Both the position numbers and the translations under genes were made by a program. The notes under the pieces are model-generated. The model saw only the letters and a program-made list of their open reading frames with translations, ran no database searches and was not told the origin of the DNA. From Minisyncoccota bacterium (GTDB lineage: Bacteria > Patescibacteriota > Minisyncoccia > Phycocordibacterales > UBA9973), in NCBI GenBank assembly GCA_016649835.1, contig JAENWX010000001.1:1-47298 (forward strand): 47,298 bases of DNA, read 5' to 3'. Positions 5,601-25,615 of the stretch are shown piece after piece; the first letter of the stretch is position 1, and each line of letters opens with the position of its first letter.

Positions 5601-5628
5601 CAATAGAATTGTAAATATTGTTGTTTAG
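2623..5628 (+). CDS. leuS: Leucine--tRNA ligase
   Basis: 1001 aa. HIGH-type motif (HVGHPRGY), KMSKR (KMSKS motif), VFTTRADTIFGATYVVLAPEH editing-domain signature, AVPAHDERDFEFA. Confidence 0.95.
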   Translation: MQNYDHIKIEKKWQKEWSKNEIYKTLNKGKKMYVLDMFPYPSGVGLHVGHPRGYIGSDVYARMKRMEGFNVLHPMGYDAFGLPAEQYALQHKIHPKKAVDENVKTFERQLSIIGLSYDWTRKVNTTDPKYYKWTQWIFLQIYNSWYDKTQNKARPISELESLFEKNGNEKINAECNSDTEFFSSKEWKLFSKIEKHNILMQYRLAYEGHSEVNWCEEMGTVLANDEITNDKNGNPVSERGGFPVIKKSMRQWFMRITAYADRLLSGLDGLEWSDHIKEIQKNWIGKSDGSEIEFKIRVPGKFSSGPRLPDLAVVRAGTREDEGPDHSENFSRDSLSIKVFTTRADTIFGATYVVLAPEHPLINNYKLLITNWREIEEYINEIKNKTDEDRVKNDKEKTGVELKGIKAINPANGEEVPVWIADYVLATYGTGAVMAVPAHDERDFEFANKYDLALKQVVVSNNLLKSIVVSTTLDNDIDFKYQLQKSKIDFTLSISSISNREHIRVELKKENLQEFINIVQKYIKEKCWVEILGNENIIVLKNEVHKDFLNHSEEWFKKFLEWEPFIKGQKNLWDMLSKNTFFQNLVCYQDDGILTNSGKFNGLTSEEARAQITKFVNGKIVTKFKMRDAIFARQRYWGEPIPLKHNPDGTTTEVKEKNLPLELPNIKSYVSTGTGESPLAGVKSWVKEGYETNTMPGWAGSSWYFLRYMDPQNSKAFASKKSLEYWKDVDVYVGGLEHATGHLLYSRFWNNFLFDLGHVPTREPFKKLRNQGMILASDGRKMSKRWNNVVNPDDIVKNYGADTLRIYEMFMGPFEQSLPWSTESIIGSRRFIDRVFRLQSKVTNKKSDIEVEKIFHKTLKKVSEDIENFAFNTAVSSMMILLNEIEKFENIGKAEFKILLQMLAPFAPHVTEELWSNTGEKKSIHKSSWPKWDKNKIVDDMIKIAVQVNGKVRTEIMISKDMSESEIKEMALKDKNILTWTEGKEIKRVIYVPNRIVNIVV
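3518..3617. repeat. GC-rich palindromic element, copy 2, in frame inside leuS with a nested hairpin
   Basis: GTCCTCG + [CCTGCCCGA-12nt-TCGGGCGGG, 3543-3572] + ACGAGGGAGGACGAGGGGCCAGAC. Flanked by imperfect inverted arms CTGGAAAGTTTTCTTCAG / TTCAGAAAATTTTTCCAG. Translates as SSGPRLPDLAVVRAGTREDEGPDHSENF just before the editing-domain signature. Confidence 0.75.
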
Positions 5629-5887
5629 ATTTTATACTAAGCTAGACCTTGCATAGCGAAGATTATTTACGGTTTATTGCACTTTTGTATGCTTGTAATC
5701 AGTCAGAAGGTTTATTTAAATGTTGGGAACTTAGCCAAAGGTCAAACTTATGATATTGAGAGTGGAAAAATATATCAAAAAACATAAAAACTGGTTTGGC
5801 AAGGACCTAAGAATTCTTTGTTTTTATTGTCTAATTTGTAGAAAAAATAGGGGATCTCTTAAATATAGATAACTTCTTGTATTTTTG

Positions 5888-5915
5888 TTGAATAAATCTA
5901 TTATTTTGTTATAAT
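5888..5915 (+). promoter_or_regulatory. Candidate sigma70-type promoter of the giant gene
   Basis: TTGAAT (5888-5893), 16-nt spacer, TGT-TATAAT extended -10 (5907-5915), about 90 nt upstream of ATG 6004. Confidence 0.45.
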
Positions 5916-6003
5916 AGAAAAGTATTTTAAGGATATCGGCTATCCGAAATATTAAAAATACTAAATCTTGTTCATCCGAGATATTCTTATAAATCTATAC
6001 ATA

Positions 6004-9000
6004 ATGCAACTTCTAGATAATATCATTTCTTTAAATCAAGCAGCCGAAATTTCTGGGTATACTCAGGACTATCTTGGTTATTTAGTACGCATAGGTGAGA
6101 TCAAAGGTGTTAAAAAAGGAGGGGTCTGGTTTATCACTAAAGAAGAGCTTAATGACTATCTATTGAAGAAAAAACCCATTCAAACAGACTCAAACACTAA
6201 AGATTTCTTTCAAAAAATTTGGCACAAAAAAATAGACGTTAAAGATTTCATTTCACATCTCTCTCCTCGTAATTTTTTGGTTTCCGCTCTTATTATATTC
6301 GTGGGACTTTCTTCGGTTGGAGCCTATCTTTTTGAGAAAAATAATTACAATCAAACTTTATCTTCCGCATTTCAATCCTTCGTTCTTTCGGATCATACAG
6401 AAGAGGTGAAAGCAAATAAGATAGGAGATTTACTTTCAAATGTTTCTGACGGACTGGCTTATGGATGGAGTGAATTTACTTTTGAAATTTTAGATGATAT
6501 TAAAAATTCTACAAACACAACAAAAGAATTAGTAGCTTTCGTTGGTGCTGAAGTTGCAAATAGAGTTCAACTTGTCGGAGATAGAATTACTTCCGTTTTA
6601 AATAATACAAAAAAGTTTTTTACTAATACTAAAAAATTTGTTGCAGTAGTGAAGACTCCTGTACCCGATAGGAAAGTTCCACTTGGCTCTTCACTAAAAG
6701 CTTCAGCCATTGATTCACTAAAGTCTGGTAGTGATTCTTTAACCTCTATCTCTACGGGATTAGCCAATGGTTGGATAACATTCACGGATTGGATTTTAAA
6801 TAATATTAAAAATTCAATCATTGGGACAAAAGAATTTGCAGTTTCTGTTGGTGATGGTGCAAAGTTTGTTGGTAATTCAATCACTAATGAAATCACATCT
6901 CAACGAACAGTAATCTCGGCATGGGGACATTCAATCCCAAGTAAAATAGTTTCAATCTGGAATTCAACCAAAAAGTTTGTCATTGATTTTATTTCTCAAC
7001 CACCAAAGTTAATAGTCAAAAGTCCAATAGTTATTCCTCCTTCACTGACAACAACTGCCCCAACAATTAAAGTTGAAGTTCCAGAACCAGAAGCCTCTAG
7101 TATAGCAGGCTCTCAACGACCGGCAACTTCGGCATCGGGAAGTACCACAATAATTCAACGAATTTATGAACAACCACAAACAACAATTATCAATCAAGTT
7201 GACCCAACCCTTTTCTCTAGAATCCAAGGTATTGAATTAGCTCTTCTAAATAATATCTCTCATAACTCTAATCAAACAAATAGAATATACGACAGTGTCG
7301 GTAGAAGTATATCCGGAGCTTCAAACAACATTACCGAAGAAGGAACATTAAATAATACAACAATAAATGATGCTACCCTTGTGAACTTCACTTCTACTGG
7401 AAATGCTTTATTTACCAAAGTTCCAACTCTGGCTCATGCTTTTGACCCTTCTTGGCCATCTGACATTTCAAATGTTTCCAATTCCTCACTCTATATCAAT
7501 CCTGCTTCTTCAGTATTGGATGGCAATCTGCTCGGTCTTGCTGTTGGAGGAGTTGTTAAATTTCTAGTTGATACTGAAGGTGATATTTATGGTAACAGTT
7601 TAATCTTAACTGGTTCTGTTACTCAAGGTAATACTACAGTAGAAAATCTAACAGTTGGTGGAAATATTATTTTAGGTGATGCTTCGACTGACACTTTAAC
7701 CATCAATTCCGCCAATTGGACTTTTGCCAACGATACCAACTTCGCGCTATCAGGAGGCCTTAATGGTTTATCTTTTGATACCGATACTCTTTTCATTGAT
7801 TCGCTCAATCACCGCATCGGCATCGGGACAACGAATCCGGGGAGTAAATTGGAAGTTGCTGGAACTTTTTCACAAACGGGAGCCAATACATTTGGAACAG
7901 GGACAGGGGTAATATCACTTAATGGAGCAACTACTATCACTGGCATCAATACTTTCACAACTGGTACAGGCACTGTAGAATTTAAAAATGTCTCTACCAA
8001 TATTTCTTCTATCAATCCCGTCATTGATACGACGGATGCCACCTCTACTCTATCCATAAACACAGTTACGAACAGACCGACAACCTTTGGGACAGGGCTA
8101 GTGACTATTCCAAATCTATTGATCACAAATTCTCAGGGCAATAATGGAACTATGGGTATTACTTCCAGCGCCACCACGGAAACTATTTTCTCAGTCACGG
8201 GTGCATCTCTAACTTCTGGCACAGGCATTGCGGAGAATATCACCGCCAATGCAAACAATGGGGAGATTACAAAAGGGCACACGATTACTATTACCGATGC
8301 CACTGTTGGCGGGGGCGGATACACTGCATTGTCAATCAGTACTTCGGGAGCTGGGGTTGGCTTGGGCAACAAATATCTTTTAGATATGAATCCGGGAGCA
8401 AATAAAGAAGTTGTGTTTGATTCGGCTGGAGCATTTAGACCAACCACTTCCGTTGCTTCCAACACCAACACTATTGGTTCATCCGATTTTTATTGGAAGA
8501 ATGGATATTTTGACCAAATTACTGCCAACAATATTTCCGGAGTGGTGGTCGGAGGAGCGACTTCATCCACTTCGTGGACCATCGGCTCTACTCAAGTCGC
8601 TGATGTCAATGAAAGTTTAATTTTTTATAGAAATAATCTAGGGGCTGGTAATGCTTCACTTCAATGGAACGCTGGTGCGGGCGACTTGCGGCATTTCACC
8701 GTCAATTATCCGTTTAACGCCACTTACACAGTCAATGATACTTCAATCACGACTGGTGTGAATTTATATTCTGGAAACTTGGTCAACAACACCACCACTG
8801 GCACTCAGAAACTTTTATCTCTGACCAACACCGGTACAGGTACGACAGAAACTGGCATTTATATAGGCAACACCGGCACAGGAACGACCGCTCTTGAAGT
8901 CGCTGGCACGTGGACCAATGGAATAATTACCAACAACAATTCTATTAATGCTGGGAGTGGAGCAATTACCGGTGGAGCAGGAACTTTCACGACCTTAAAT

Positions 9001-12000
9001 GGTAACACTATTACTACCGGTACAGGTATTCTTACAATATCTGCTGGCAAAACTTTAACTATTTCCGACTCAACAACATTTGGAACTAATGCGATTACTT
9101 TGGCAGGAGGAGAAGTAATAACATTCTCACCCGCTAATGCACTTTCACTTCTAACTACAGGAGGAACTTCTGTTACTTTGCCGACCACCGGCACGCTAGC
9201 TACACTCGCTGGTGCAGAAGCTCTTACAAACAAGACTATTGTTGCAGGTAGTAATACGATTTCAGGAATTATCAATGCTAATCTCTCAGGTACAGCAGGA
9301 ATATCAAACGCAAACCTTGCCAACTCTACTATCAGTGGAATATCTCTCGGCGGAACATTACCCACCCTTACTTTTGGCACCCATCTCTCAGGTATTTCTT
9401 ACAATGGTTCAACAGCGGTAACCATCGCAACAGATGCAACTGATGCAAACACTGCAGGAACTATTGTTTCAAGAGATGCATTTGGTAACTTCTCGGCGGG
9501 AGCAATTACTTCCGGCCTCATCAACTCTCAAACCATTTCCTCAAATGCTTCCTTCACTGGTACGGTTAATGCAGTTACTGGTTACAAATTAAACGGCATT
9601 GCTACTTCTGGTAATGTGCTTCGCGGGGATGGTATCAACTTCGTCAATGCTACTCTCGGTGGCTCTGATATTACTGGTGCAGCTCTTACCAAGACCGATG
9701 ACACCAATATTACTCTTACCCTAGGAGGCACTCCAGCGACTTCACTTTTGCGCGCAACGAGCTTGACCCTTGGCTGGAGTGGGTTACTTTCTCCCGCTCG
9801 TGGTGGTACTGGAGTAAACAACGGCACGAACACCCTTACTTTGGGTGGGAACTTAATTACCTCTGGAGCCTTTGCCACCACTCTCACTACCTCTGGAATC
9901 ACAGCTCTCACTTTGCCGACTTCAGGAACTCTCTATAGTACAGCGACGGGTTCCATCACGTCTCTCTCAGTACTCACTTCCGTATCTGATGAAACTGGCT
10001 CGGGGGCTTTGGTCTTTGCAACTTCTCCAACTCTAGTTACTCCAGTATTAGGAGCAGCAACTGCTACAACTGTTAATGCCTTAACTCTAACTGCAGCTGC
10101 TGATGGTTTCACTATCGCAGGTGGAACAGTATCAAGAACATTAACAGTTACAGGTGCTGATGCTTCAATCTCTGGAACACATACAGGTACATCATCTGGA
10201 ACAAACACTGGCGACAATGCTACCAACTCTCAATACTCAGGTCTTGCAGCTTCTAAATTAGATACTGGACTAGCCTTACTTCTTGCTGGAGGGACTATGA
10301 CAGGTGGAATAACTAACTCTACTTCAGTCAATCCCCTCACAACTCTAGCTGAATCTTGGATTGGGCCGAGTTCAACTACTGGTGTTTATTTCAACGGCGG
10401 CAACGTCGGGATTGGTAATACAAGCCCAGATTCAAAATTAAGTATTAATTCTTCAACAGACAATGTAAGTATTATGACTCTTCGTTTTCCTTCAGGTAGT
10501 AATGCTGATAAAGTTGGAATTTTATTTAAGGGGAATGATGGAACTTATAATATAAATTATGCAGAAATGATTGGTGGAGTAGAAAACTGGTCAAATGATG
10601 ATGGGTTCATTGGTTTTAGAACAGCTAAAGCTACTACCTTAGCAGAAAGAATGAGATTAACTTCAAACGGAACTTTGGAAGTTGGTTTTAATTACACAGG
10701 TACAAGTGGAACATTAGCAAATGGAATGATTGTTGAAGGCAACGTCGGCATCGGGACGACGAATCCTGCACAGAAGTTGCATGTTGAAGGTTCTCCTGCG
10801 ATAGGGACAACTGGTACGGAATCAATGTTGTTATTAGGACGTGCCTTGTCTGGCGGGGTTTCATTTAATCAAGCTGCAGCGTTTAAACTTGGCAGATGGC
10901 AAAATGCGGGAGGTACTTATGAATCATTTACTCGGTTAGATATTGCGTTGAAAGATGATGATGCAGTGAACGATTACAGTACAGACGTAACTGTTATGTC
11001 ATTACAAAACAACGGCAACGTCGGCATCGGGACGACGAGTCCAAACGCTAATTTGGAAGTTGTAGGAGCAACAGGAATTATACAAACTATAAATACAACA
11101 GCAGAAGGACTTGGTTATTTCACTACATTAAAATCTGAATATGCTTCTAATACAGGATATTTAGCGTTTGCTGGTGGTGGTGGTACAGGTAAAGTTATTG
11201 GTGGGGCAGCTTATGGAGTGGATACTGTTCTTTTTGCTAATAATACGGAAAGGGTTAGAATATTAAACAACGGCAACGTCGGCATCGGCACGACGAGTCC
11301 ACAAGCGAAATTACAGATTGGTTCAAATATAAATACTATTCCTGCTTCGACTGCATTAAGTACAGTAGGAGGTACAACTATTCGATTTTTGAATGGCGAT
11401 GGTAATGCTGATTATGGTTCATATTTAGCAAGTGGTGGAACAGCACAACTTACTCTTGGTTCAAGATATGCTTCCATTGATACAGATGTGTTAACTGTAA
11501 ATAACGGCAACGTCGGCATCGGGACGACGGGGCCAGGGGCGAAGTTGGATGTCGTAGGAACATCTGTTGCTGGTGGCGCAGAAGGAATATATGTAAGTAA
11601 CACCACTTCAGGTAATGCAAACAAAGCGCTTCTGGGGGTTACAAGTGCCACATTCTCTTATGGCAGTTTGGGTGGTAATGAGACCGTGTTATTCAACGCG
11701 GCGACATCGCCGATATCATTGGTTACGGCGGATGCCCAACCAATAAAATTCATTACGAATTACGCAGAGGCGATGAGGATACAATCAAACGGCAACGTCG
11801 GCATCGGGACGACGGCACCAGGAGAAAAACTTGAAGTAAATGGAAAAATTAAAGTTTTAGGTGCATTTGGGTCTATTATAGGATACAGGTCATTTGGTTC
11901 AAATTTTAGTATGGATAGCAGTGGAGTTTATACTACGACAGATACTCATGCTAGTTATGGTTATTCAGGTATGGTGGCATCTTGGGGGTCACTTCATTTT

Positions 12001-15000
12001 TTTGCTAATGAAGTAGCAACAACGGCAGGTCAAACAATTACACCATCTGAAAAAATGACAATATTAGGAGCATCAGGCAACGTCGGCATCGGGACGACGA
12101 ATCCGGTGAGCGCTTTGAATGTTGCAGGTACAACAGGATTAACATGGGGAAATGGTAGTTCGCCATCAAAAGGTTTACTGACCGTTGGTTCTCAGGGTAC
12201 GGGAGGAAGTTCTTTGTTCGTTAACACCCCTGGGTATGCATCAACATTTGGTGCTGGGTTTGGGGTTGATGGAACTTTTAGCGGGTCTACTGCAACAATA
12301 AATTTGAAAGCATTTGGAATATTTCCAGGAGATACTGGTTGGGGGTCAAACTTAACATTTTCTACAACCTTAGATAATACTCTCAATGAGAGAATGAGGA
12401 TGGATAAGAACGGCAACGTCGGCATCGGGACGACGGGGCCGACAGCTAAATTAGAGGTTGGAGGTAATTTTATTGGTTCAGCACCAGTTGATGCTATTGT
12501 AATAAGAGCATTAACTGATGGACAGTATCAAGGAGGATTTATAAATTGGAAAGCTAACATTGCTTCCAGTAACTTTTCTTTAAGTAAGATATATGGAGGG
12601 AGAGATAATGTAGAAGCTTCATCTAAATTAGGATTTTTTACTAATAGTGATATTTATAATGTTGCTGACCTATCTTCTGAAAAAATGACTATTTTAGGAA
12701 ACGGCAACGTCGGCATCGGGACGACGAGTCCAGGGTCAAAACTTGATGTGAATGGAACTATCGCTGTTAGACAATCTAGCAATGGAACAAGTGGGACACC
12801 TTTGGAAACCATAGGACTGCTTGGAACTAACAGCTTGGGAAATACTGGTATTCCTATGCCTTCCATAAATTTTGTAAACTCTTGGACTACTAACAATAAT
12901 TCATGGATGAATTTTCATGTTCGTAATAACACTATTGATACTGTTGCAATGACTCTTCTATATAACGGCAACGTCGGCATCGGGACGACGGCACCGATGT
13001 ATAAATTAGATTTGGGCAACACATCACTTGATAGTAATACATTGAGATTTGGTGTTGGGACACGGAATTCAACTGGTGCACAGTATCCTGCCAAAATAGA
13101 TTTATATGTATATGACGCTAATCCTGTTAATCAATATTTAAGATTTTATGCCCCAAACGGTAATCCAAGTGGTGCGACAGAAGCTGATAGACAAACATTG
13201 GGAATGGTCATCAATGGAAACGGCAACGTCGGCATCGGGACGACGAGTCCTGCGACACAAATGCATATTGTTGGCGTGGGTCAAAGAACCGCAGCTTTAA
13301 CTGATGCGGGCGCTAAAGGCTCAACACTTTTTCTTGAGGATCCAACAAGTGATACCGGAACCGGTGGTGCTATAACTTTTGGCGGTGGAGCAGCGAATGG
13401 TAGTGTGCCACAAGCAGCAATAAAACTTCTACTATCTAATGGAGGAGCGAATGGTACGGGTGACCTTGCTTTCTCCACTCGTAATGTGGCGTCAGATGTA
13501 GCTCTAACAGAAAGGATGAGAATATTAAATAACGGCAACGTCGGCATCGGGACGGTGGGACCGGGGGCATTGTTGCATCTTGGCAAAGCAGGGAGTCTTA
13601 ACGAATCTGATACTGCGTTTGACTTAGCCGACTCTGATACTCTGCTTAAATTGGAAAACACTGGTCCATCTTATGGCTCAGAAACAGCTTTGTCTTTAGG
13701 TGCAACGGTTTCTTCTGCCTACAGGCCAGCTGGACTCATTACGGGTAAATTTTGGGGACCCTCCGACTTTAACAGTGGACGTCTCGGATTCTCAACATCA
13801 AATTCTGGCACACTTGGCTTGCGTATGGTGATTGATGAAACTGGCAACGTCGGCATCGGGACGACGAGTCCACAAGTTCCATTAACTATTTATGGCTCTT
13901 CTGGAAATGTTGATATAAATGTAGGGAGTAGAAATGGAGTAGCGACTGGAAAAGCATTAGTATTAAGATATAATTTAACTGATGACTATGGACAGATTGC
14001 TAGTTATGATTATGCAACAGGTGCAAAAAATTTAGTTATTAACCCAATTGGTGGCAACGTCGGCATCGGGACGACGGCACCACAAGCCAAGCTGACTATA
14101 AAGGGTAATCAATTATTTGCGGGTAATCCCGATATTGGTTCTTACGGGAAGTTAGAAGCTGTCTATGATGGAAACATTGCTACTTACGGCACAGCTGCGA
14201 GTATAGATTTTTATCGTCCGATAGCAACATACGGTAATGAAGGAGAAATTCGTTTTAGCACCAGTCCAGGAGTAGGTGGTGTATCAACTCCAACACAGAG
14301 AATGGTAATAGATAAGAATGGCAACGTCGGCATCGGGATGACGGCACCGGGGGCGAAGTTGGATGTTGTATACCCAGGTACTATCGGAACATCTTTAACA
14401 ACTTTAAGGGCATTTGGATATGATGCAGATAGTTATTTTAGTGTGTCAAATGACGCAAATAATTCAGCAAATGTTGCGCTTTACAGGTCTGATACAATAA
14501 AGATGTTTGAGGTTCTTGGTCATACCGGTAAAGCATATTTTAACGGCAACGTCGGCATCGGGACGACGGGGCCGAGTGGCAAACTCGATGTTGCTGGTGG
14601 TACGGCATATTTCTCTGGTCTAAGTACAGCCGCGCGTCAAGTGATTGGTCTTTCTAGTGATGGAGTTACAAATCAAATTCAATCAACTTATCTAGGTGCT
14701 TCTAGCTTCGTGCCTCTGGCGTTTCAAGTTGGTGGGGGGGAAAAGGTCAGAATATTAACAAACGGCAACGTCGGCATCGGGACGACGGGGCCGACGTATA
14801 AATTAGAAGTGAACGGAGGAGCCACTTCCCCTTTATCTGTTTATTCAAGCAGCGATTATCAGTTAGGGCTAAGGAATACAGGAGATGCTGGTGGTTGGTG
14901 GCTTAAGAGCTATGGTGCGGGAGCATTTGCTTTACATGAAAATGGAATTGGAGATAAATTAACTTTTGATGATAGTGCAACTGGAAATGTGTATTTTCAA

Positions 15001-16026
15001 AACATAGGCAACGTCGGCATCGGGACGACGAATCCGAGTACAAATAAATTGGTTGTCGTCGGAGATATAAGAGTTGGAACAACTGGTACAGATGGTTGTA
15101 TACAAAGATTCGATGGTACAGCTCTCACCGGTTCTTGTTCATCAGATATTAGATTAAAGAAAGACATTAATTCTATCACAGGAGTTTTAGAAAACTTTGT
15201 TAACCTAAATCCAGTTACTTACAAATGGAGAGCTGATGAGTACCCAGAGAGAGGATTTGGTACAGGTATGGTTACAGGTTTAATTGCTCAAGAAGTAGAA
15301 GGTATCTTTCCTGAATTAGTAAACAAAGACAGTCAGGACTTCTTTACAGTAGACTACGGAGTGAATTTACAAATGCTATCCATACAAGCGATTAAGGAAC
15401 TCAATTTGAAAGTGGAAGATTTGTCTTCGCTTGATATAAAAAATCCTACTTCATTTGGATCTCTTATTAAATATTTCTTAGCCGATATTAGTAATGGCTT
15501 AGAGAAGATTTTTGTTAAAGAGGTAAATACTGACACTTTGTGTGTTTACGATGCTACAGGAGCCAAAACCTGTATAAATAAGGCTCAATTGGACGCATTG
15601 TTGGTTGGTGTCGGAACGACTTATAGTGGTTCCAGTAGTAGTTCAAGTGAGAGTAATGTTGTTCTATCAAGTTTTGATGAGAATTTAGTAAATGCTAAAA
15701 CAGAAGCCAATGGAAAAATAGAAACAGATTATACATCAGAAAGTTGGGGAACATTTAATTCAGCATTAACTCTAGATTTAGAATTATCAGAGACAAATGA
15801 TGAAGAAAAAATTACAAAAACAAATGCCATCAATGATGCAATTTCAGGATTAGAATTATTAATAGTGGAAGAAGTTGTTGATGTACTACCAGAGGAAGTT
15901 CCTCCAGCTGAAGAGCCGGTGGTTGAAGCTCCAGCGGAAGAACCCGTAGTTGAAGCTCCAGCGGAAGAGCCGGTAGTTGAGCCAACAGCAGTTGAAACGA
16001 TAGTTGAGCCAGCTCCAGTAGAATAA
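6004..16026 (+). CDS. Giant (~3340 aa) membrane-anchored repetitive surface protein: HTH-like N-terminus, one TM, and a Peptidase S74-like intramolecular chaperone motif in the C-terminal region
   Basis: One uninterrupted ORF; the track starts at TTG 5968 and the first ATG is 6004. The N-terminus LSLNQAAEISGYTQDYLGYLVRIGEIKGVKKGGVWFITKEEL resembles an excisionase/MerR-type HTH, followed by the TM FLVSALIIFVGLSSVGAYLF. A T/G/S/N-rich region follows, then 17 modules containing NGNVGIGTT. CSSDIRLKKDI...LIAQEVEGIFPELV matches the tail-fibre autoproteolysis motif. Confidence 0.85.
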   Translation: MQLLDNIISLNQAAEISGYTQDYLGYLVRIGEIKGVKKGGVWFITKEELNDYLLKKKPIQTDSNTKDFFQKIWHKKIDVKDFISHLSPRNFLVSALIIFVGLSSVGAYLFEKNNYNQTLSSAFQSFVLSDHTEEVKANKIGDLLSNVSDGLAYGWSEFTFEILDDIKNSTNTTKELVAFVGAEVANRVQLVGDRITSVLNNTKKFFTNTKKFVAVVKTPVPDRKVPLGSSLKASAIDSLKSGSDSLTSISTGLANGWITFTDWILNNIKNSIIGTKEFAVSVGDGAKFVGNSITNEITSQRTVISAWGHSIPSKIVSIWNSTKKFVIDFISQPPKLIVKSPIVIPPSLTTTAPTIKVEVPEPEASSIAGSQRPATSASGSTTIIQRIYEQPQTTIINQVDPTLFSRIQGIELALLNNISHNSNQTNRIYDSVGRSISGASNNITEEGTLNNTTINDATLVNFTSTGNALFTKVPTLAHAFDPSWPSDISNVSNSSLYINPASSVLDGNLLGLAVGGVVKFLVDTEGDIYGNSLILTGSVTQGNTTVENLTVGGNIILGDASTDTLTINSANWTFANDTNFALSGGLNGLSFDTDTLFIDSLNHRIGIGTTNPGSKLEVAGTFSQTGANTFGTGTGVISLNGATTITGINTFTTGTGTVEFKNVSTNISSINPVIDTTDATSTLSINTVTNRPTTFGTGLVTIPNLLITNSQGNNGTMGITSSATTETIFSVTGASLTSGTGIAENITANANNGEITKGHTITITDATVGGGGYTALSISTSGAGVGLGNKYLLDMNPGANKEVVFDSAGAFRPTTSVASNTNTIGSSDFYWKNGYFDQITANNISGVVVGGATSSTSWTIGSTQVADVNESLIFYRNNLGAGNASLQWNAGAGDLRHFTVNYPFNATYTVNDTSITTGVNLYSGNLVNNTTTGTQKLLSLTNTGTGTTETGIYIGNTGTGTTALEVAGTWTNGIITNNNSINAGSGAITGGAGTFTTLNGNTITTGTGILTISAGKTLTISDSTTFGTNAITLAGGEVITFSPANALSLLTTGGTSVTLPTTGTLATLAGAEALTNKTIVAGSNTISGIINANLSGTAGISNANLANSTISGISLGGTLPTLTFGTHLSGISYNGSTAVTIATDATDANTAGTIVSRDAFGNFSAGAITSGLINSQTISSNASFTGTVNAVTGYKLNGIATSGNVLRGDGINFVNATLGGSDITGAALTKTDDTNITLTLGGTPATSLLRATSLTLGWSGLLSPARGGTGVNNGTNTLTLGGNLITSGAFATTLTTSGITALTLPTSGTLYSTATGSITSLSVLTSVSDETGSGALVFATSPTLVTPVLGAATATTVNALTLTAAADGFTIAGGTVSRTLTVTGADASISGTHTGTSSGTNTGDNATNSQYSGLAASKLDTGLALLLAGGTMTGGITNSTSVNPLTTLAESWIGPSSTTGVYFNGGNVGIGNTSPDSKLSINSSTDNVSIMTLRFPSGSNADKVGILFKGNDGTYNINYAEMIGGVENWSNDDGFIGFRTAKATTLAERMRLTSNGTLEVGFNYTGTSGTLANGMIVEGNVGIGTTNPAQKLHVEGSPAIGTTGTESMLLLGRALSGGVSFNQAAAFKLGRWQNAGGTYESFTRLDIALKDDDAVNDYSTDVTVMSLQNNGNVGIGTTSPNANLEVVGATGIIQTINTTAEGLGYFTTLKSEYASNTGYLAFAGGGGTGKVIGGAAYGVDTVLFANNTERVRILNNGNVGIGTTSPQAKLQIGSNINTIPASTALSTVGGTTIRFLNGDGNADYGSYLASGGTAQLTLGSRYASIDTDVLTVNNGNVGIGTTGPGAKLDVVGTSVAGGAEGIYVSNTTSGNANKALLGVTSATFSYGSLGGNETVLFNAATSPISLVTADAQPIKFITNYAEAMRIQSNGNVGIGTTAPGEKLEVNGKIKVLGAFGSIIGYRSFGSNFSMDSSGVYTTTDTHASYGYSGMVASWGSLHFFANEVATTAGQTITPSEKMTILGASGNVGIGTTNPVSALNVAGTTGLTWGNGSSPSKGLLTVGSQGTGGSSLFVNTPGYASTFGAGFGVDGTFSGSTATINLKAFGIFPGDTGWGSNLTFSTTLDNTLNERMRMDKNGNVGIGTTGPTAKLEVGGNFIGSAPVDAIVIRALTDGQYQGGFINWKANIASSNFSLSKIYGGRDNVEASSKLGFFTNSDIYNVADLSSEKMTILGNGNVGIGTTSPGSKLDVNGTIAVRQSSNGTSGTPLETIGLLGTNSLGNTGIPMPSINFVNSWTTNNNSWMNFHVRNNTIDTVAMTLLYNGNVGIGTTAPMYKLDLGNTSLDSNTLRFGVGTRNSTGAQYPAKIDLYVYDANPVNQYLRFYAPNGNPSGATEADRQTLGMVINGNGNVGIGTTSPATQMHIVGVGQRTAALTDAGAKGSTLFLEDPTSDTGTGGAITFGGGAANGSVPQAAIKLLLSNGGANGTGDLAFSTRNVASDVALTERMRILNNGNVGIGTVGPGALLHLGKAGSLNESDTAFDLADSDTLLKLENTGPSYGSETALSLGATVSSAYRPAGLITGKFWGPSDFNSGRLGFSTSNSGTLGLRMVIDETGNVGIGTTSPQVPLTIYGSSGNVDINVGSRNGVATGKALVLRYNLTDDYGQIASYDYATGAKNLVINPIGGNVGIGTTAPQAKLTIKGNQLFAGNPDIGSYGKLEAVYDGNIATYGTAASIDFYRPIATYGNEGEIRFSTSPGVGGVSTPTQRMVIDKNGNVGIGMTAPGAKLDVVYPGTIGTSLTTLRAFGYDADSYFSVSNDANNSANVALYRSDTIKMFEVLGHTGKAYFNGNVGIGTTGPSGKLDVAGGTAYFSGLSTAARQVIGLSSDGVTNQIQSTYLGASSFVPLAFQVGGGEKVRILTNGNVGIGTTGPTYKLEVNGGATSPLSVYSSSDYQLGLRNTGDAGGWWLKSYGAGAFALHENGIGDKLTFDDSATGNVYFQNIGNVGIGTTNPSTNKLVVVGDIRVGTTGTDGCIQRFDGTALTGSCSSDIRLKKDINSITGVLENFVNLNPVTYKWRADEYPERGFGTGMVTGLIAQEVEGIFPELVNKDSQDFFTVDYGVNLQMLSIQAIKELNLKVEDLSSLDIKNPTSFGSLIKYFLADISNGLEKIFVKEVNTDTLCVYDATGAKTCINKAQLDALLVGVGTTYSGSSSSSSESNVVLSSFDENLVNAKTEANGKIETDYTSESWGTFNSALTLDLELSETNDEEKITKTNAINDAISGLELLIVEEVVDVLPEEVPPAEEPVVEAPAEEPVVEAPAEEPVVEPTAVETIVEPAPVE
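10738..15030 (+). repeat. 17 in-frame copies of the GC-rich core GGCAACGTCGGCATCGGGACGACG
   Basis: Core starts at 10738, 11014, 11272, 11506, 11791, 12076, 12412, 12703, 12967, 13222, 13534, 13843, 14053, 14320, 14545, 14764 and 15007. Fourteen copies are identical over 24 nt and three differ by 1-2 nt. Spacings of 210-336 nt are all multiples of 3. Confidence 0.95.
15907..15987 (+). repeat. 27-nt tandem repeat x3 encoding AEEPVVEAP
   Basis: Read directly at the extreme C-terminus of the giant ORF. Confidence 0.85.
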
Positions 16027-20280: not shown

Positions 20281-20955
20281 ATGAGAAAACAACCTATTAT
20301 TACAGGTGAGTATTATCACATATATAACCGTGGAGTTGATAAACGAGATGTTTTTAGTGATAAAATGGATATTAGACGTTTTGTTGAAAGTATAAATGAA
20401 TTTAATCAAGTTGATGTAATAGGAAGTTTGATTAATTTAAGAAAATCTAAAAATATCCAGAAAGGGCCTAAGGCCCTTTCTGAGGAACCATTAGTTGTTA
20501 TAATGGTATATTGTTTGAATCCAAATCATTTTCACTTTGTCTTGAAGCAATTAGAAGATGGAGGAATATCAAAGTTTATGCAAAAATTACAAAGTGGATA
20601 TACTTCTTATTTTAATGTAAAAAATTCTAGATCCGGTTCACTATTCCAGGGAACTTTTAAAGCACAACATATAGGTAGTGAAAATTATTTTAATAAAACT
20701 CTCGGATATGTAAATAAAAATTATCAAGTTCATAATATTCCAGAGGATAAAAAAGAATTAGTTTTTGCCAGTGATTATGAATATGAAAATAATAATTTTA
20801 AAATTGTTTCAAAAATAGAGGGAAATAGAATTTTAGAAATTTTTGGTGGAGTTGGTGGATTTAAAAGACATTCAGATGAAATAGTTGAGATTATTAGGAA
20901 GGAAAGAGGCAAGACTTCTCTTTTAGAAGATGAAGAATTACCAGAAAGGGCCTAA
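20281..20955 (+). CDS. HUH/Y1 transposase, IS200-like, REP-associated (RAYT-like)
   Basis: 224 aa. YHIYNRGVDKRDVF, HUH motif in NPNHFHFVLK, GYTSYFN, and GSLFQGTFKAQHI (compare the G.WQ.RF..H pattern of RAYTs). The palindrome occurs upstream, inside, and at the stop codon. Confidence 0.7.
   Translation: MRKQPIITGEYYHIYNRGVDKRDVFSDKMDIRRFVESINEFNQVDVIGSLINLRKSKNIQKGPKALSEEPLVVIMVYCLNPNHFHFVLKQLEDGGISKFMQKLQSGYTSYFNVKNSRSGSLFQGTFKAQHIGSENYFNKTLGYVNKNYQVHNIPEDKKELVFASDYEYENNNFKIVSKIEGNRILEIFGGVGGFKRHSDEIVEIIRKERGKTSLLEDEELPERA
20458..20482. repeat. REP-like palindrome, copy 2, in frame inside the transposase ORF
   Basis: CAGAAAGGGCC-taa-GGCCCTTTCTG, read in frame as QKGPKALSE. Confidence 0.85.
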
Positions 20956-23576: not shown

Positions 23577-23647
23577 GCGAGTATAATACAGTGGCAGTAT
23601 ATTTGCTTCCCAAGCAAAATACGCGGGTTCGATTCCCGCTACTCGCA
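23577..23647 (+). tRNA. tRNA-Gly (anticodon CCC)
   Basis: Hand-folded cloverleaf. Acceptor GCGAGTA/TACTCGC, D stem ATAC/GTAT, anticodon stem TTTGC/GCAAA, loop TTCCCAA, 4-nt variable loop, T arm GCGGG-TTCGATT-CCCGC, discriminator A. No encoded CCA. Confidence 0.9.
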
Positions 23648-23688
23648 CATATTAAAAAACACTTTTTGGAGTGTTTTTTAATATGTGC
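23645..23688. terminator. AT-rich 19-bp perfect palindrome (terminator-like) overlapping the tRNA-Gly 3' end
   Basis: GCACATATTAAAAAACACT-ttttgg-AGTGTTTTTTAATATGTGC. Confidence 0.55.
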
Positions 23689-23806
23689 GGGATAGCAAGC
23701 CAACTGCTTGGCTTGCGTACGGGAATTGAAAGACTTTTCGTTCTCTGATGTTAACCAGAGCAAAAAGTACCTGAACATGTAATGTTCGATTCCCGCTACT
23801 CGCACC
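23686..23806 (+). ncRNA. tRNA-tethered structured element, copy A (Gly)
   Basis: GCGGGATA; P2 23695-23716 (GCAAGCCAA-ctgc-TTGGCTTGC); CGGGAATTGAA (23720-23730) pairs with TTCGATTCCCG (23785-23795); AGAC; P4 CTTTTC...GAAAAG; TACC; P5 23773-23787 (GAACA-tgtaa-TGTTC). 23785-23804 is an exact copy of the tRNA-Gly 3' end. Strand and RNA status are unproven. Confidence 0.5.
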
Positions 23807-23898
23807 GTTTTAATAAGGATTTTTGTCAATATTTGCAAATTTTATGGCTATGCTATAATTGGCATACAAATAGATTATTAATTAATAAATTAAACATT

Positions 23899-24138
23899 AT
23901 GAAAAAAGTAACAATTTACAGTACTCCGACATGTCATTTTTGTCACATGGCTAAAGATTTTTTGAAAGAGAAAAATATAGCATTCGAAGATTTTGATGTT
24001 TCTGTTGATTTAGAAAAAAGAAAAGAAATGGTAAATAAAAGTGGTCAAATGGGTGTCCCTGTTATTCTTATTGATAATAATTTAATCGTAGGCTTTAATA
24101 AACCTAAAGTAATTGAATTGTTAGGTATAACTGAGTAG
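23899..24138 (+). CDS. Glutaredoxin/NrdH-like thiol-disulfide oxidoreductase
   Basis: 79 aa counted from ATG 23899: MKKVTIYSTPTCHFCHMAKDFL...GVPVILID. CxxC and cis-Pro region are present. The track's longer start (23782) overlaps element A. Confidence 0.8.
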   Translation: MKKVTIYSTPTCHFCHMAKDFLKEKNIAFEDFDVSVDLEKRKEMVNKSGQMGVPVILIDNNLIVGFNKPKVIELLGITE

Positions 24139-24160
24139 TAATTTAATTTACAATGACGTA

Positions 24161-24199
24161 TTATAAGAGCATTCAGGTTTTACCTGAATGCTCTTATAA
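24161..24199 (+). terminator. Intrinsic terminator-like hairpin after grx
   Basis: TTATAAGAGCATTCAGG-tttta-CCTGAATGCTCTTATAA, 17-bp stem, ending 3 nt before tRNA-Arg. Confidence 0.6.
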
Positions 24200-24202
24200 T
24201 TT

Positions 24203-24274
24203 GCCCACGTAGTTCAATGGATAGAATAGCTCACTCCTAACGAGCTGATTCAGGTTCGACTCCTGACGAGGGCA
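24203..24274 (+). tRNA. tRNA-Arg (anticodon CCT)
   Basis: Hand-folded. Acceptor GCCCACG/CGAGGGC with an A5-A68 mismatch, D stem GTTC/GAAT, anticodon stem GCTCA/CGAGC (one A-C), loop CTCCTAA, T arm TCAGG-TTCGACT-CCTGA. Confidence 0.75.
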
Positions 24275-24315
24275 CAATAAATAAACCTTAAAAAGGTTTA
24301 TTTATTGTGCCCTCG
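24267..24315. terminator. 23-bp perfect palindrome spanning the tRNA-Arg acceptor 3' strand and the start of element B
   Basis: CGAGGGCACAATAAATAAACCTT-aaaa-AAGGTTTATTTATTGTGCCCTCG. Confidence 0.55.
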
Positions 24316-24454
24316 AGCAAGACAACTGCTTGTCTTGCGTTCAGGAGTCGAAGACCTTGAACTTATTTTTAAAAATTTAAATTTTAAAAAATGTGAAAGG
24401 TGTACTGATTCTGTAAGAATCGACAAGCGTATTCGCGGTCCTGACGAGAGCACC
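24309..24454 (+). ncRNA. tRNA-tethered structured element, copy B (Arg)
   Basis: GCCCTCG; P2 24317-24338 (GCAAGACAA-ctgc-TTGTCTTGC); TCAGGAGTCGAA = reverse complement of the tRNA-Arg T loop plus 3' T stem; GACC; long AT-rich P4; TGTAC; P5 24407-24421 (GATTC-tgtaa-GAATC); 3' TTCGCGGTCCTGACGAGAGCA (24432-24452). Confidence 0.5.
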
Positions 24455-24490
24455 TTTTATTTTTAATAAAAATATGATAATATCCTTTAT

Positions 24491-24769
24491 ATGGATCAGG
24501 AGACAAAGCAGTTATTGGAAGAAAATCTAAAGTTGTCAAAAGAGAACAATGAAATGCTCAATAGTCTTATTCGTAGTAAAAAGCAAAATGCTATATTTAA
24601 GGCAGTTTACTGGGTAATAATTATTCTAATAACTATTGGTTCATATTATTTTATTAAGCCATATATAAGTAGTTTAACGAGTTTATATACGGGAGGTGCG
24701 TCTGAGATGTTAAATGTAAGTGTAAGTGAAAACCAGCAAATAACTGATTTGTTGAATAAACTAAAATAA
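24491..24769 (+). CDS. Hypothetical single-TM protein
   Basis: 92 aa ORF with a coiled N-terminus and one hydrophobic helix (AVYWVIIILITIGSYYFI). Confidence 0.4.
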   Translation: MDQETKQLLEENLKLSKENNEMLNSLIRSKKQNAIFKAVYWVIIILITIGSYYFIKPYISSLTSLYTGGASEMLNVSVSENQQITDLLNKLK

Positions 24770-24790
24770 TTTTTTTAGAAAATAGAAAAT

Positions 24791-24863
24791 GCCGAGATAG
24801 CTCAGTTGGTAGAGCGCTCCCCTGAAGAGGGATAGGTCCCCAGTTCAAATCTGGGTCTCGGCA
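24791..24863 (+). tRNA. tRNA-Phe (anticodon GAA)
   Basis: GCCGAGA-TA-GCTC-AGTTGGTA-GAGC..., anticodon loop CTGAAGA, T arm CCCAG-TTCAAAT-CTGGG, acceptor 3' TCTCGGC, discriminator A. Confidence 0.9.
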
Positions 24864-24896
24864 CACGAAATAATATAAGTTTAATAATAAAACTTT

Positions 24897-24938
24897 CCTT
24901 CAGGTGAGATAGCCAGTTCAAATCTGGGTCTCGGCACA
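24897..24938 (+). pseudogene. tRNA-Phe fragment (mosaic) ending in an exact 25-nt copy of the tRNA 3' end
   Basis: CAGTTCAAATCTGGGTCTCGGCACA (24914-24938) equals 24841-24865. It is preceded by GAGATAGC (matching the tRNA 5' region) and TTCAGGTGAG (resembling the complement of the anticodon arm). Confidence 0.6.
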
Positions 24939-24971
24939 AAATAAAAATACCCGTCAGGGTATTTTTATTAT

Positions 24972-25086
24972 GCCGAGACAACACATGAACTACTTCATGT
25001 GTGTCCAGATTTGAAAGACTTTTCATTATCAGCTGTGCTGATTGAAAAGTACCCGACTAAGTAATAGTCTAATCTGGGTCTCGGCA
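24972..25086 (+). ncRNA. tRNA-tethered structured element, copy C (Phe)
   Basis: P1 GCCGAGAC/GTCTCGGC; P2 24980-25003 (AACACATGAA-ctac-TTCATGTGT); P3 CCAGATT (25005-25011)/AATCTGG (25071-25077); AGAC; P4 CTTTTCA..ATCAG-c-tgtg-CTGAT.TGAAAAG; TACCC; P5 25055-25069 (GACTA-agtaa-TAGTC). Confidence 0.5.
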
Positions 25087-25094
25087 CAATAAAT

Positions 25095-25120
25095 AAAAAA
25101 CACCCGTTAGGGTGTTTTTT
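25095..25120. terminator. Bidirectional intrinsic terminator
   Basis: AAAAAACACCC-gtta-GGGTGTTTTTT, between the tRNA-Phe block (+) and hsp20 (-). Confidence 0.7.
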
Positions 25121-25126
25121 ATTTTA

Positions 25127-25615
25127 TTATATTGATTTAATTTTTAACTTTGTCTCTCTATTTTTATCTAATTTAGGAAGTTTAATTATTAGCAATCCGT
25201 GTTTTTCGATTGCTTCTGCTTCCTCAGGGTCTACTTCTTCTGGTAGGGAAATAGTTCTAGAAAATGAACCCCAATATAGTTCTTGGACAAAGTAATTATC
25301 TTTATCAATAGATTGATTTTCTTCGCGTTTGCCACGAATAGTAATCATATCTCGAGTGATTGTTATAGAAAGGTTATCAGGTTGCACTCCAGCAACCATA
25401 GTTTGAACAATAATGTCTGATGGGGTTTGGTATAAATCTACAGTTAATTCTGCATCTATTTCTTCATCCCATTTTGATTCTTTTGGCTCTTGTCCATCTT
25501 TTGCAAAAATAGTATTTTTTTTGTTGGATTCAGAAGAGAAATTTTCTTCTTCCTCATTTTCTTCAAATCGAATACTTCCTGTTAGTCTTTCTAAAAATGA
25601 TTTCTTTTTTGGCAT
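25127..25615 (-). CDS. Hsp20/alpha-crystallin small heat-shock protein
   Basis: 162 aa. ACD pattern DLYQTPSDIIVQTMVAGV...ITIRGKRE...FSRTISLPEEVD...GLLIIKLPK. Confidence 0.85.
   Translation of the reverse strand: MPKKKSFLERLTGSIRFEENEEEENFSSESNKKNTIFAKDGQEPKESKWDEEIDAELTVDLYQTPSDIIVQTMVAGVQPDNLSITITRDMITIRGKREENQSIDKDNYFVQELYWGSFSRTISLPEEVDPEEAEAIEKHGLLIIKLPKLDKNRETKLKIKSI

Follow-up and report, generated by a model that had tools for sequence, protein, structure and literature searches.

The genes for tRNA-Gly(CCC), tRNA-Arg(CCT) and tRNA-Phe(GAA) in a 47,298-nt stretch of a Minisyncoccota bacterium genome (Patescibacteriota; contig JAENWX010000001.1 of assembly GCA_016649835.1, hereafter the window) are each followed, just 3' of the gene, by a non-coding insertion of ~120–160 bases. 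These insertions, called here elements A, B and C, belong to a previously undescribed family spread across Patescibacteria, or the candidate phyla radiation (CPR). The family has a common scaffold that consists, in order, of hairpin P2, GT, GAAA, hairpin P4 (closed by GAC...GT(A)C), C, and hairpin P5 with a GTA-type loop. Interleaved with the scaffold is an anti-T-arm, a segment complementary to the sense strand of the local tRNA (nt 57–65, or 54–65 including the GAA that starts the core), and about half of the copies carry a second complementary segment, the anti-acceptor. The insertion point lies just past the tRNA end (nt 74–77), the far side is bounded by a second copy of tRNA nt 57–74, and the element usually brings a terminator-like palindrome that now stands behind the tRNA. 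Two further helices, P1 and P3, are formed by the anti-acceptor and the anti-T-arm with the downstream tRNA-tail copy. Between close relatives an element is present, absent, replaced or tandemly repeated. The best reading of these data, to which we assign a probability of roughly one half, is a small, protein-less, Patescibacteria-specific insertion module, non-autonomous and folding as a single strand, that integrates at the 3' ends of tRNA genes.

Natural controls for the insertion are available among contigs that code for an identical glutaredoxin (loci fetched from other genomes carry L numbers). In a strain variant, L001, tRNA-Gly runs directly into the flank that follows the second repeat of the window (..CTCGCAC followed by CATTTTAATAAGG). 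Hence, element A is a clean 157-nt insertion bounded by a 22-nt repeat. In L002, which for A and B is the same strain, no element stands behind tRNA-Phe, while L121, from the same sample, has C exactly as in the window. L003 carries other element variants at the Gly and Arg sites. In the syntenic relative L056, a tandem pair of type-2 and type-1 elements stands behind tRNA-Gly, the tRNA-Arg site is empty with a homologous flank, and C is decayed. The comparison of syntenic tRNA loci that the earlier, sequence-only reading of this DNA had proposed thus uncovered empty sites for A (L001), B (L056) and C (L002), together with tail duplication. Since all three sites are empty in close relatives, the elements are insertions, and the tRNA tail is duplicated over 18–22 nt on their flanks. 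In the tandem arrays of L021, L038, L056 and L114, successive units are separated by one tail copy. Among the candidate explanations offered earlier, an insertion element is therefore backed by empty sites, tandem arrays and hundreds of tRNA-linked copies, and folding of the + strand by covariation of P2, P4 and P5; the support claimed for P1 and P3 did not hold, as detailed below.

We searched a 596-Gb genome collection with a core pattern of 21 bases common to A and C (GAAAGACTTTTC N12–40 AAAAGTACC). At least 117 genome stretches matched, where our estimate of chance matches is ~4. The full architecture is present in 115 of the 117 matches listed, hence in at least 115 loci. Nearly all of these 115 are labelled as CPR/Patescibacteria or as unclassified metagenome-assembled genomes, with one labelled Bacteroides sp. 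(L095); the named groups are Paceibacteria, Nomurabacteria, Vogelbacteria, Taylorbacteria, Lloydbacteria, Minisyncoccia, 'Saccharibacteria' and Peribacteria. The two remaining matches listed (Tunturibacter and Bacteroidota) are without the fold and are chance. Viral contigs, phages and plasmids (IMG/VR, INPHARED, PLSDB) gave 0 matches, and a phage or plasmid origin was rejected accordingly. Full-text literature searches turned up no description of such an element. In Rfam 15, whose families include tRNA-like RNAs, ribozymes and omega/bridge RNAs, only the three tRNAs of the region pass the gathering threshold and nothing credible lies over the elements at E-values up to 10, which bears out the earlier impression that this is no known RNA family; tRNAs were likewise the only Rfam matches in 16 related loci.

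A covariance model built from 10 copies, all from other genomes, recovered the three window sites on the + strand: A with 83.8 bits (E-value 2e–18), C with 74.6 bits (E-value 3e–16) and B with 41.3 bits (E-value 4.5e–8). The other window matches at E < 0.1 are weak, lie on the minus strand (E-value ~1e–3 to 0.04) and fall over the same palindromes and P2 hairpins. As the model comes from other genomes, its recovery of A, B and C excludes chance. The model found 125 copies in 100 sources, so that the covariance model and the search for further copies, both suggested from the sequence alone, returned the window sites as well as family members elsewhere. The core of B represents a sister type (GAAGACC...GGTGTAC-P5) that also occurs in L003, L012, L018, L047, L056, L113 and L120. 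A third, longer core type stands behind tRNAs as well, flanked likewise by T-arm copies in both inverted and direct orientation, and no Rfam family matches it. This third type was noted in L009 at ~290–470 and also in L071, L041, L100, L006, L010 and L109, with the motifs GAAAG(A/C)CGGAG..CGAG(G/T)CGGGGTCGCG..TTTTTCAGCAGAAAAA..TGAGCGACGGCGA..GTGACCGA. Analogies of the GAAAGAC/GTACC junction with hammerhead, K-turn, H/ACA and C/D motifs were considered by eye, and none fits.

The family is closely tied to tRNA genes. About 80% of cores (103 of 129) have a tRNA on the same strand within 400 nt upstream, mostly at 40–90 nt, and 34 anticodons are represented. The 9 bases that precede GAAAGAC are the reverse complement of tRNA nt 57–65 at all nine positions in 37 of 86 copies and at eight of nine in 28 more. 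Taking all 203 tRNAs in the fetched loci, the reverse complement of nt 57–65 occurs within 500 nt downstream of 104 of them, compared with 13 in the upstream control. Dispersed copies, a trait of repetitive extragenic palindromic (REP) and REPIN sequences, were not found in the window, where the covariance model matches only behind the three tRNAs. At two loci (L016, ~4890–4960; L022, ~300–380) no tRNA precedes the element; its place is taken by a promoter-proximal sequence of ~47 nt that contains a hairpin, ends in ..GTACACCGC(G/A) and comes with a terminator. It may represent a tRNA-like fragment or a small RNA that has escaped annotation.

Helix statistics were obtained from a model-based alignment of the 125 copies. 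Paired cells amount to 92.2% versus 69.5% in shuffles, double changes (on both sides) are seen in 29 of 33 pairs, and the covariation score is 0.538 versus 0.154, a level reached by none of 500 shuffles (slid controls 0.04–0.07). P2 is paired in 98.3% of cells with 9/9 pairs covarying, P4 in 98.6% including its GAC/GT(A)C extension (GGC/GC(A)C in L021), and P5 covaries as well; for the three hairpins together, 20 of 24 pairs have double changes and 88–98% of cells are paired. P2, P4 and P5 covary strongly and do so independently of the tRNA. The helices made with tRNA sequence behave differently. Of 657 aligned P3 positions, 498 are identical across tRNA, guide and downstream copy, 66 are changed in the downstream copy only, 52 in the guide only, and ~7 are genuinely compensated. 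For P1, a good anti-acceptor is present in 44 of 86 copies, a good downstream acceptor copy in 41 and both in 14, and about half of the family lacks the helix or has it in degenerate form. P1 and P3 had been thought to gain support from following whichever tRNA lies upstream. This tracking is instead copying of tRNA nt 57–73, after which both strands drift without compensation, and we rejected P1 and P3 as independently supported helices since almost no change in them is compensated. The covariation analysis, named earlier as a way to refute the structure, thus divides it: P1 and P3 have no support beyond identity with the tRNA, and the P2/P4/P5 scaffold is supported.

The edges of the repeats were mapped in 38 well-preserved copies. 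The left edge is nt 56/57 in 23 of 38, and the right edge is nt 74–76 in 25 of 38. In element A both repeats are native (22/22), but the guide (GTGCGGGATA...ACGGGAATT) perfectly fits the tail of another tRNA-Gly, TATCCCGC, as in L024, L030 and L056. The 5' strand of A, GTGCGGGATA, is the exact complement of the tRNA-Gly acceptors in these same three loci. Because it fits other tRNA-Gly acceptors, it is a segment that was inherited and matches the local acceptor imperfectly. In P1 of A, the G-T pairs that had been taken to favour the plus strand are mismatches of this inherited segment, and we therefore discarded the strand call based on them. L074 resembles A in having native repeats and a differing guide, here at two tRNA-Gly genes, and in 27 copies the downstream acceptor copy is perfect and the anti-acceptor poor. 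After a Campbell-type crossover, or with an IS605-type right end, the tail of the element itself should appear in one of the repeats, which native repeats do not match. Duplication or templating of the target fits these data better than either.

Elements of the IS200/IS605 group, palindrome-associated transposable elements (PATEs) and REP/REPIN-RAYT systems provide a partial parallel through their small size, richness in hairpins and strand specificity; MITE-like hairpin elements such as PATEs and REPINs also depend on an enzyme that acts in trans, as the present elements would. IS200/IS605 elements read their cleavage sites by means of a short DNA guide at the hairpin foot, which resembles the arrangement of anti-acceptor, P2 and acceptor copy described here, and REPs have GTAG 5' of the hairpin where the present elements have a conserved GTAC 5' of P5. 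However, the putative guide is 9–20 nt long rather than 4 nt, and a flanking repeat of 18–22 nt is present where IS200/IS605 have none. Unlike the right end of IS200/IS605 or PATEs, this repeat is identical to the local tRNA even where the guide differs. In contrast to REP/REPIN sequences, the copies are tRNA-linked (~80%) and not dispersed, and the RAYT-like gene of the window has other palindromes.

The polarity of mismatches indicates which strand folds. On the + strand, 37 helix mismatches are G.T and 18 are A.C, and the closing pair of P5 is T.G in 15 copies and A.C in none. The excess of G.T and the T.G closure of P5 point to the tRNA-sense (+) strand as the folding strand. The share of wobble pairs is ~1.4% G.T in the elements, with a G.T:A.C ratio of ~2.4:1, as compared with 3.5–5.7% and ~10:1 in the stems of tRNAs from the same loci. 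Loops of the GNA or GCGAAGC type, which are known to give very stable DNA mini-hairpins, occur in P5 and at some P4 tips. Palindrome loops include 3 GNRA and 1 UUCG among 36, too few clear cases to judge whether RNA-type tetraloops are favoured. Overall, single-stranded DNA is mildly preferred over RNA, a preference that is not decisive.

Based on these observations, the module that we consider the best reading would move as one folded strand of tRNA-sense polarity, with DNA more likely than RNA. The P2/P4/P5 scaffold would be recognised by an enzyme of the host or by one that acts in trans from a gene elsewhere, and the anti-T-arm with the optional anti-acceptor would pick the target by pairing with the sense strand at the 3' end of the tRNA gene. 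Insertion would duplicate, or copy from the target, a tail of 18–22 nt; if the tail is target-derived, both flanking repeats match the local tRNA, also in cases where the guide does not. Once in place, guide and downstream copy would no longer be maintained.

Several results weigh against this reading. No candidate enzyme was found: no protein family recurs in the neighbourhood of the 117 loci listed, and the window open reading frames (ORFs) scanned with Pfam include no integrase, reverse transcriptase, IS110 transposase or TnpB. The only transposase-like ORF of the window, RAYT/IS200-like with a Y1 domain (20281–20955; weak Pfam and NCBIfam matches), was rejected as the mobiliser, as it has unrelated palindromes of its own and is not present at the other loci. 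Some repeats overshoot the tRNA by 8–15 nt or more and reach the A-tract or sequence beyond it. A fixed staggered cut explains such overlong repeats less well than recombination or tandem duplication does, hence both of these processes also contribute. Within a genome, copies at different tRNAs are 40–90% identical in P2, P4 and P5, and modules appear shuffled. As these copies are not near-identical, there is no sign of recent intragenomic bursts. Finally, the core sequence is conserved phylum-wide, which is unusual for a purely selfish miniature inverted-repeat transposable element and suggests a conserved function or partner. Exchange between strains probably plays a part, with homology arms provided by the tRNA and the tail copy.

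All-versus-all clustering of 1516 neighbouring ORFs gave no family present in more than 12 loci and no recombinase among the families. Where 0.6–3 kb of DNA separates a tRNA from a distal element (L047, L113 and L068), the insert encodes ordinary cargo and no enzymes. A cis-encoded enzyme was therefore rejected. The Y1 ORF is associated with three perfect palindromes, AGAAAGGGCCT(T/A)AGGCCCTTTCT, between 20223 and 20966, one upstream, one in frame inside the ORF and one across its stop codon. It has no homolog among the other loci of the 117 listed, and the ORF and its palindromes together resemble a REP-RAYT pair that has no relation to the tRNA elements. Two loci have stretches of 1.5–3 kb of ordinary genes (HAD-like, HIT-like and unknown) between two elements (L047, 4232–7560; L113, minus strand, 4512–6200). 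Both members of these element pairs carry tRNA-Gln tail copies, and tail copies seem to serve as repeated landing sites for small gene cassettes.

A bolder version of the insertion module, which we hold as speculative and rather unlikely, makes it a gene-free, nucleic-acid-guided system. Here a hairpin scaffold of ~70 nt would recruit a host or unlinked enzyme, the complements of T-arm and acceptor would act as a programmable guide, and guide and repeat would be rewritten from the target at each insertion. Such rewriting would account for the match of a single scaffold family to 34 or more different tRNAs across the phylum. The bridge RNA of IS110 and the seekRNA of IS1111 are similar in that a structured non-coding segment bears target complements flanking a hairpin. 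In contrast to these systems, no DEDD recombinase gene was found in the window or as a recurrent family in the loci, a whole copy of the target is carried, and the flanking repeat is long compared with a 2-nt core.

An entirely different possibility, which we also consider unlikely, is that the elements are functional genes for a tRNA-like non-coding RNA. The acceptor stem would then be mimicked by P1 and the T stem by the outer 5 bp of P3, P2 would stand in place of the D and anticodon arms, and the T loop would be expanded by P4 and P5. RNase P and RNase Z would release the RNA from transcripts that read through the tRNA, and the product would be a mimic, decoy or regulator with specificity for its own tRNA; the link to tRNA genes would reflect co-transcription, and turnover would reflect recombination between strains. 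The layout does map on a tRNA (5' strand, side arm, 5' strand of the T stem, insert, then nt 57–73 with the discriminator), and tRNA-like structures such as the tRNA-like domain of transfer-messenger RNA (tmRNA), viral tRNA-like structures, mascRNA and bacterial Y RNA similarly stack an acceptor-like stem, with cognate 3' strand and discriminator, on a helix like the T stem. Conservation of the core across many CPR classes, the + strand bias of G.T pairs and the old, diversified state of within-genome copies, which are not recent bursts, all count in favour of an RNA gene, and a circularly permuted reading gives a gene followed by its own terminator. However, about half of the copies have no P1 or a degenerate one, and P1 and P3 decay through 66 + 52 one-sided changes against ~7 compensated ones. 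Unlike the known tRNA-like structures, the elements have P4 and P5 instead of a T loop, an acceptor-like stem that is dispensable and helices that are not maintained. The enzymes that process tRNA ends use a 12-bp acceptor/T ruler. A P1+P3 stack of 16 bp without a T loop departs from that ruler. In addition, a terminator-like palindrome usually lies between the tRNA promoter and the element and no other promoter was found, wobble pairs are scarcer than in tRNAs of the same loci, and neither ARAGORN nor Rfam reports a tRNA, tmRNA or tRNA-like RNA at the elements.

The elements can also be compared with attachment sites. The element might be a folded single-strand attP-like site that integrates by Campbell-type recombination, a model reminiscent of the integron attC site or the attP hairpin of CTX phage: P1 and P3 of a free circle would rebuild the double-stranded tRNA tail, and an Xer-like or integrase-like tyrosine recombinase would cross over in the T loop. 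The T loop is the classic sublocation used by tRNA-targeting integrases, and the repeat indeed spans the T loop to the tRNA 3' end. Integrative elements with tyrosine integrases share with A, B and C this direct repeat (22, ~15 and 18 nt in the window), the tRNA 3' site, an intact tRNA and arrays. The attC and CTX-phage attP hairpins share a size of ~60–140 nt, structure kept more than sequence, arrays that sometimes have genes between the units, and one folded strand that rebuilds a duplex recombination site. The size of the elements (115–150 nt), their conserved structure and tandem arrays recall in particular attC and Vibrio cholerae repeat arrays; gene cassettes stand between elements in L047 and L113, and the variable right edges of the repeats fit recombination. 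We nevertheless regard an attP-like site as distinctly unlikely. Campbell-type recombination predicts hybrid repeats, but A and L074 have both repeats native with a different guide. No integrase is encoded beside any of the 117 loci listed or in the window, and a single protein would need to tolerate 34 different core sequences. Unlike integrative elements, A, B and C are gene-free and 120–160 nt long with no integrase found nearby, the inverted copy of the target is split by a hairpin, hairpins covary, and both repeats look target-derived. Unlike attC, they come with no integron integrase that we could find and no R/L box consensus, their scaffold hairpins are conserved in sequence, and at their boundary stands the T loop of the tRNA, whose sequence in A, GTTCGAT, departs from the GTTRRRY-type core; no such core was found. 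The paired boxes of the elements, in contrast to those of attC and attP, are tRNA gene copies and differ for every tRNA.

Retroposition of the kind practised by short interspersed elements (SINEs) appears improbable. In such a scheme tRNA-processing enzymes would free a trailer RNA that starts at tRNA nt 74 and ends at the downstream discriminator, and this RNA would anneal through its tail copy or guide to a nicked tRNA gene, where a reverse transcriptase would copy it in and create a target-site duplication, a feature that SINE-like retroposons and the present elements have in common. The ends of the unit do coincide with tRNA processing sites (after nt 73–76 and at the downstream discriminator), the duplication of 18–22 nt is target-derived, and 5'-truncated units without P2 occur in the arrays of L010, L036 and L120. 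But no reverse transcriptase is found in the window and none recurs near the loci, there is no A-tail and no CCA added after the downstream copy, and a terminator at the 5' end of the element itself would block its transcription.

That the elements are debris, either decayed att junctions of larger elements or products of palindrome-driven rearrangement by template switching at the terminator hairpin, is barely credible: other scars exist at the same tRNAs (a 26-nt tRNA-Phe copy, an anticodon-loop duplication in L051, and the islands of L047 and L113), and long perfect palindromes reaching into the acceptor could grow by template switching, but a covarying scaffold of 100 nt in more than 100 species, recovered at E-values of 1e–8 to 1e–18 by a model from other genomes, and the clean ends of the 157-nt insertion largely refute debris, and the att-junction alternative raised in the sequence-only reading gives way to a module conserved in its own right.

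If the insertion module is real, up to half of tRNA genes in many Patescibacteria genomes, and 3/3 in the window, carry an unannotated structured element that supplies terminators to tRNA genes and whose partial tRNA copies confuse tRNA annotation. As repeated landing pads, the elements would gather small gene cassettes, and they would be among the smallest site-specific mobile elements known. Helices that match the target would suggest recognition by base pairing rather than by a sequence-specific protein, which is relevant to programmable DNA insertion. The elements would also offer a testable handle on genome plasticity in an uncultivated phylum with reduced genomes, and a new family for Rfam-type or mobile-element databases.

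The anatomy of the three elements, all of whose features lie on the + strand, reproduces the arrangement originally proposed: ARAGORN, Rfam, a repeat finder and minimum free energy (MFE) folds return a tRNA gene followed by a palindrome and a P1–P5 element in each case. MFE folds give back P1–P5 in A, B and C (z = –4.4, –4.1 and –9.1, respectively), with both strands folding about equally well. The repeat finder places the start of all three palindromes within the acceptor 3' strand. Some measures required adjustment. Element length is 118–148 nt instead of 115–146 nt, and the exact direct copies extend over 22 nt in A (20 nt reported) and 18 nt in C (17 nt reported); the divergence of the copy in B was reproduced (14/15), as was the single compensated pair that separates P2 of A from P2 of B.

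Element A targets tRNA-Gly(CCC) (23577–23648; ARAGORN and Rfam RF00005, 71.5 bits). As inserted DNA it covers 23649–23805 (157 nt: palindrome, scaffold and second tRNA-tail copy) and is missing in L001. The first direct repeat (tRNA nt 53–74, 23627–23648) is identical at 22/22 positions to the second (23784–23805), which supplies the 3' strands of P3 and P1. The terminator-like palindrome has 20-nt arms (23644–23663 and 23670–23689) that are 100% complementary and start in the acceptor 3' strand. It is followed by the anti-acceptor GCGGGATA (5' strand of P1, 23687–23694), imperfect against the local acceptor and an exact complement of other tRNA-Gly acceptors, and by P2 (23695–23716; 9 bp, loop CTGC). 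The anti-T-arm, which forms the 5' strand of P3 plus GAA (23719–23730), is complementary to tRNA nt 54–65 at 10/12 positions. P4 (23732–23770) has closing pairs GAC/GT(A)C with a bulged A, and these pairs covary (GGC/GCAC in L021); P5 (23773–23787) reads GAACA TGTAA TGTTC. In L001, where the tRNA element is absent, a GIY-YIG ORF and GC-rich REP-like repeats (gtcccgaccgtagtcggga...) are inserted between the DivIC-like gene and tRNA-Gly (2370–2740).

Element B follows tRNA-Arg(CCT) (24203–24275; ARAGORN and Rfam). The palindrome has 23-nt arms (24267–24289 and 24293–24315; 100%), and its right arm ends in the anti-acceptor GCCCTCG (24309–24315). P2 (24317–24338) is given by the fold and by the covariance model, and the anti-T-arm (24341–24352) matches the T loop and the 3' T stem at 12/12 positions (TTCGACTCCTGA / TCAGGAGTCGAA). 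The type 2 core (24350–24421; GAAGACC, AT-rich P4, GGTGTAC and P5) scores 41.3 bits with the covariance model, and its P5 (24407–24421) reads GATTC TGTAA GAATC. According to the repeat finder, a mini-hairpin AAGCGTATTCGCGG and a diverged tRNA-tail copy TCCTGACGAGAGCAC follow at 24425–24453. The tail copy matches at 14/15 positions (24439–24453), with the 14-nt mini-hairpin inserted ahead of it; this mini-hairpin recurs as a subfamily feature. The tRNA-Arg(CCT) itself has an A5.A68 mismatch in the acceptor stem (5' GCCCACG / 3' CGAGGGC) and, at 57 bits, the lowest Rfam score of the three window tRNAs; the acceptor of tRNA-Arg in L056 is perfect (GCCCTCG/CGAGGGC). Upstream of the gene, a palindrome with perfect 19-nt arms (24160–24200) lies between the glutaredoxin gene and tRNA-Arg and is conserved in L001–L003. 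It is probably the glutaredoxin terminator.

Element C (24937–25089) stands behind tRNA-Phe(GAA) (24791–24864; ARAGORN and Rfam); it is identical in L121, decayed in L056 and absent after tRNA-Phe in L002. Its palindrome has 16-nt arms (24937–24952 and 24957–24972; 94%), which extend to 24928–24945 and 24962–24979 at 83%. The anti-acceptor (24972–24979), P2 (24981–25002), the anti-T-arm (25005–25012, plus GAA; 11/11 inverted T-arm match), P4 (25017–25052), P5 (25055–25069) and an exact tail copy (25071–25088; 18/18) follow in order. The repeat finder also reports a second terminator-like hairpin after C (25091–25124) that resembles the C palindrome. Between tRNA-Phe and C, the same program revealed a feature absent from the earlier description, a 47-nt spacer with an extra, exact 26-nt copy of the tRNA-Phe tail (24866–24938; the copy at 24913–24938). 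This copy is probably the remnant or scar of another insertion at the same site; a related spacer and tail copy are present at tRNA-Phe in L056. The gene after tRNA-Phe also differs between genomes. The window leads into Hsp20 on the minus strand (25089–25130), and L002 (1176–1257) and L056 lead into a gene starting MEN(L/F)KSTLF.. that is not in the window. This difference points to a rearrangement or a larger insertion or deletion at tRNA-Phe.

The surrounding 47 kb are ordinary cellular DNA of a low-GC organism. The window encodes MurJ, LepA, the DivIC-like protein, glutaredoxin, Hsp20 and PrsW, as well as aminoacyl-tRNA synthetases, Mur ligases, penicillin-binding proteins and MraZ/MraW. 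A single ORF of 3352 aa (5968–16026) has a GC content of 0.41–0.46 compared with ~0.31 elsewhere in the window.

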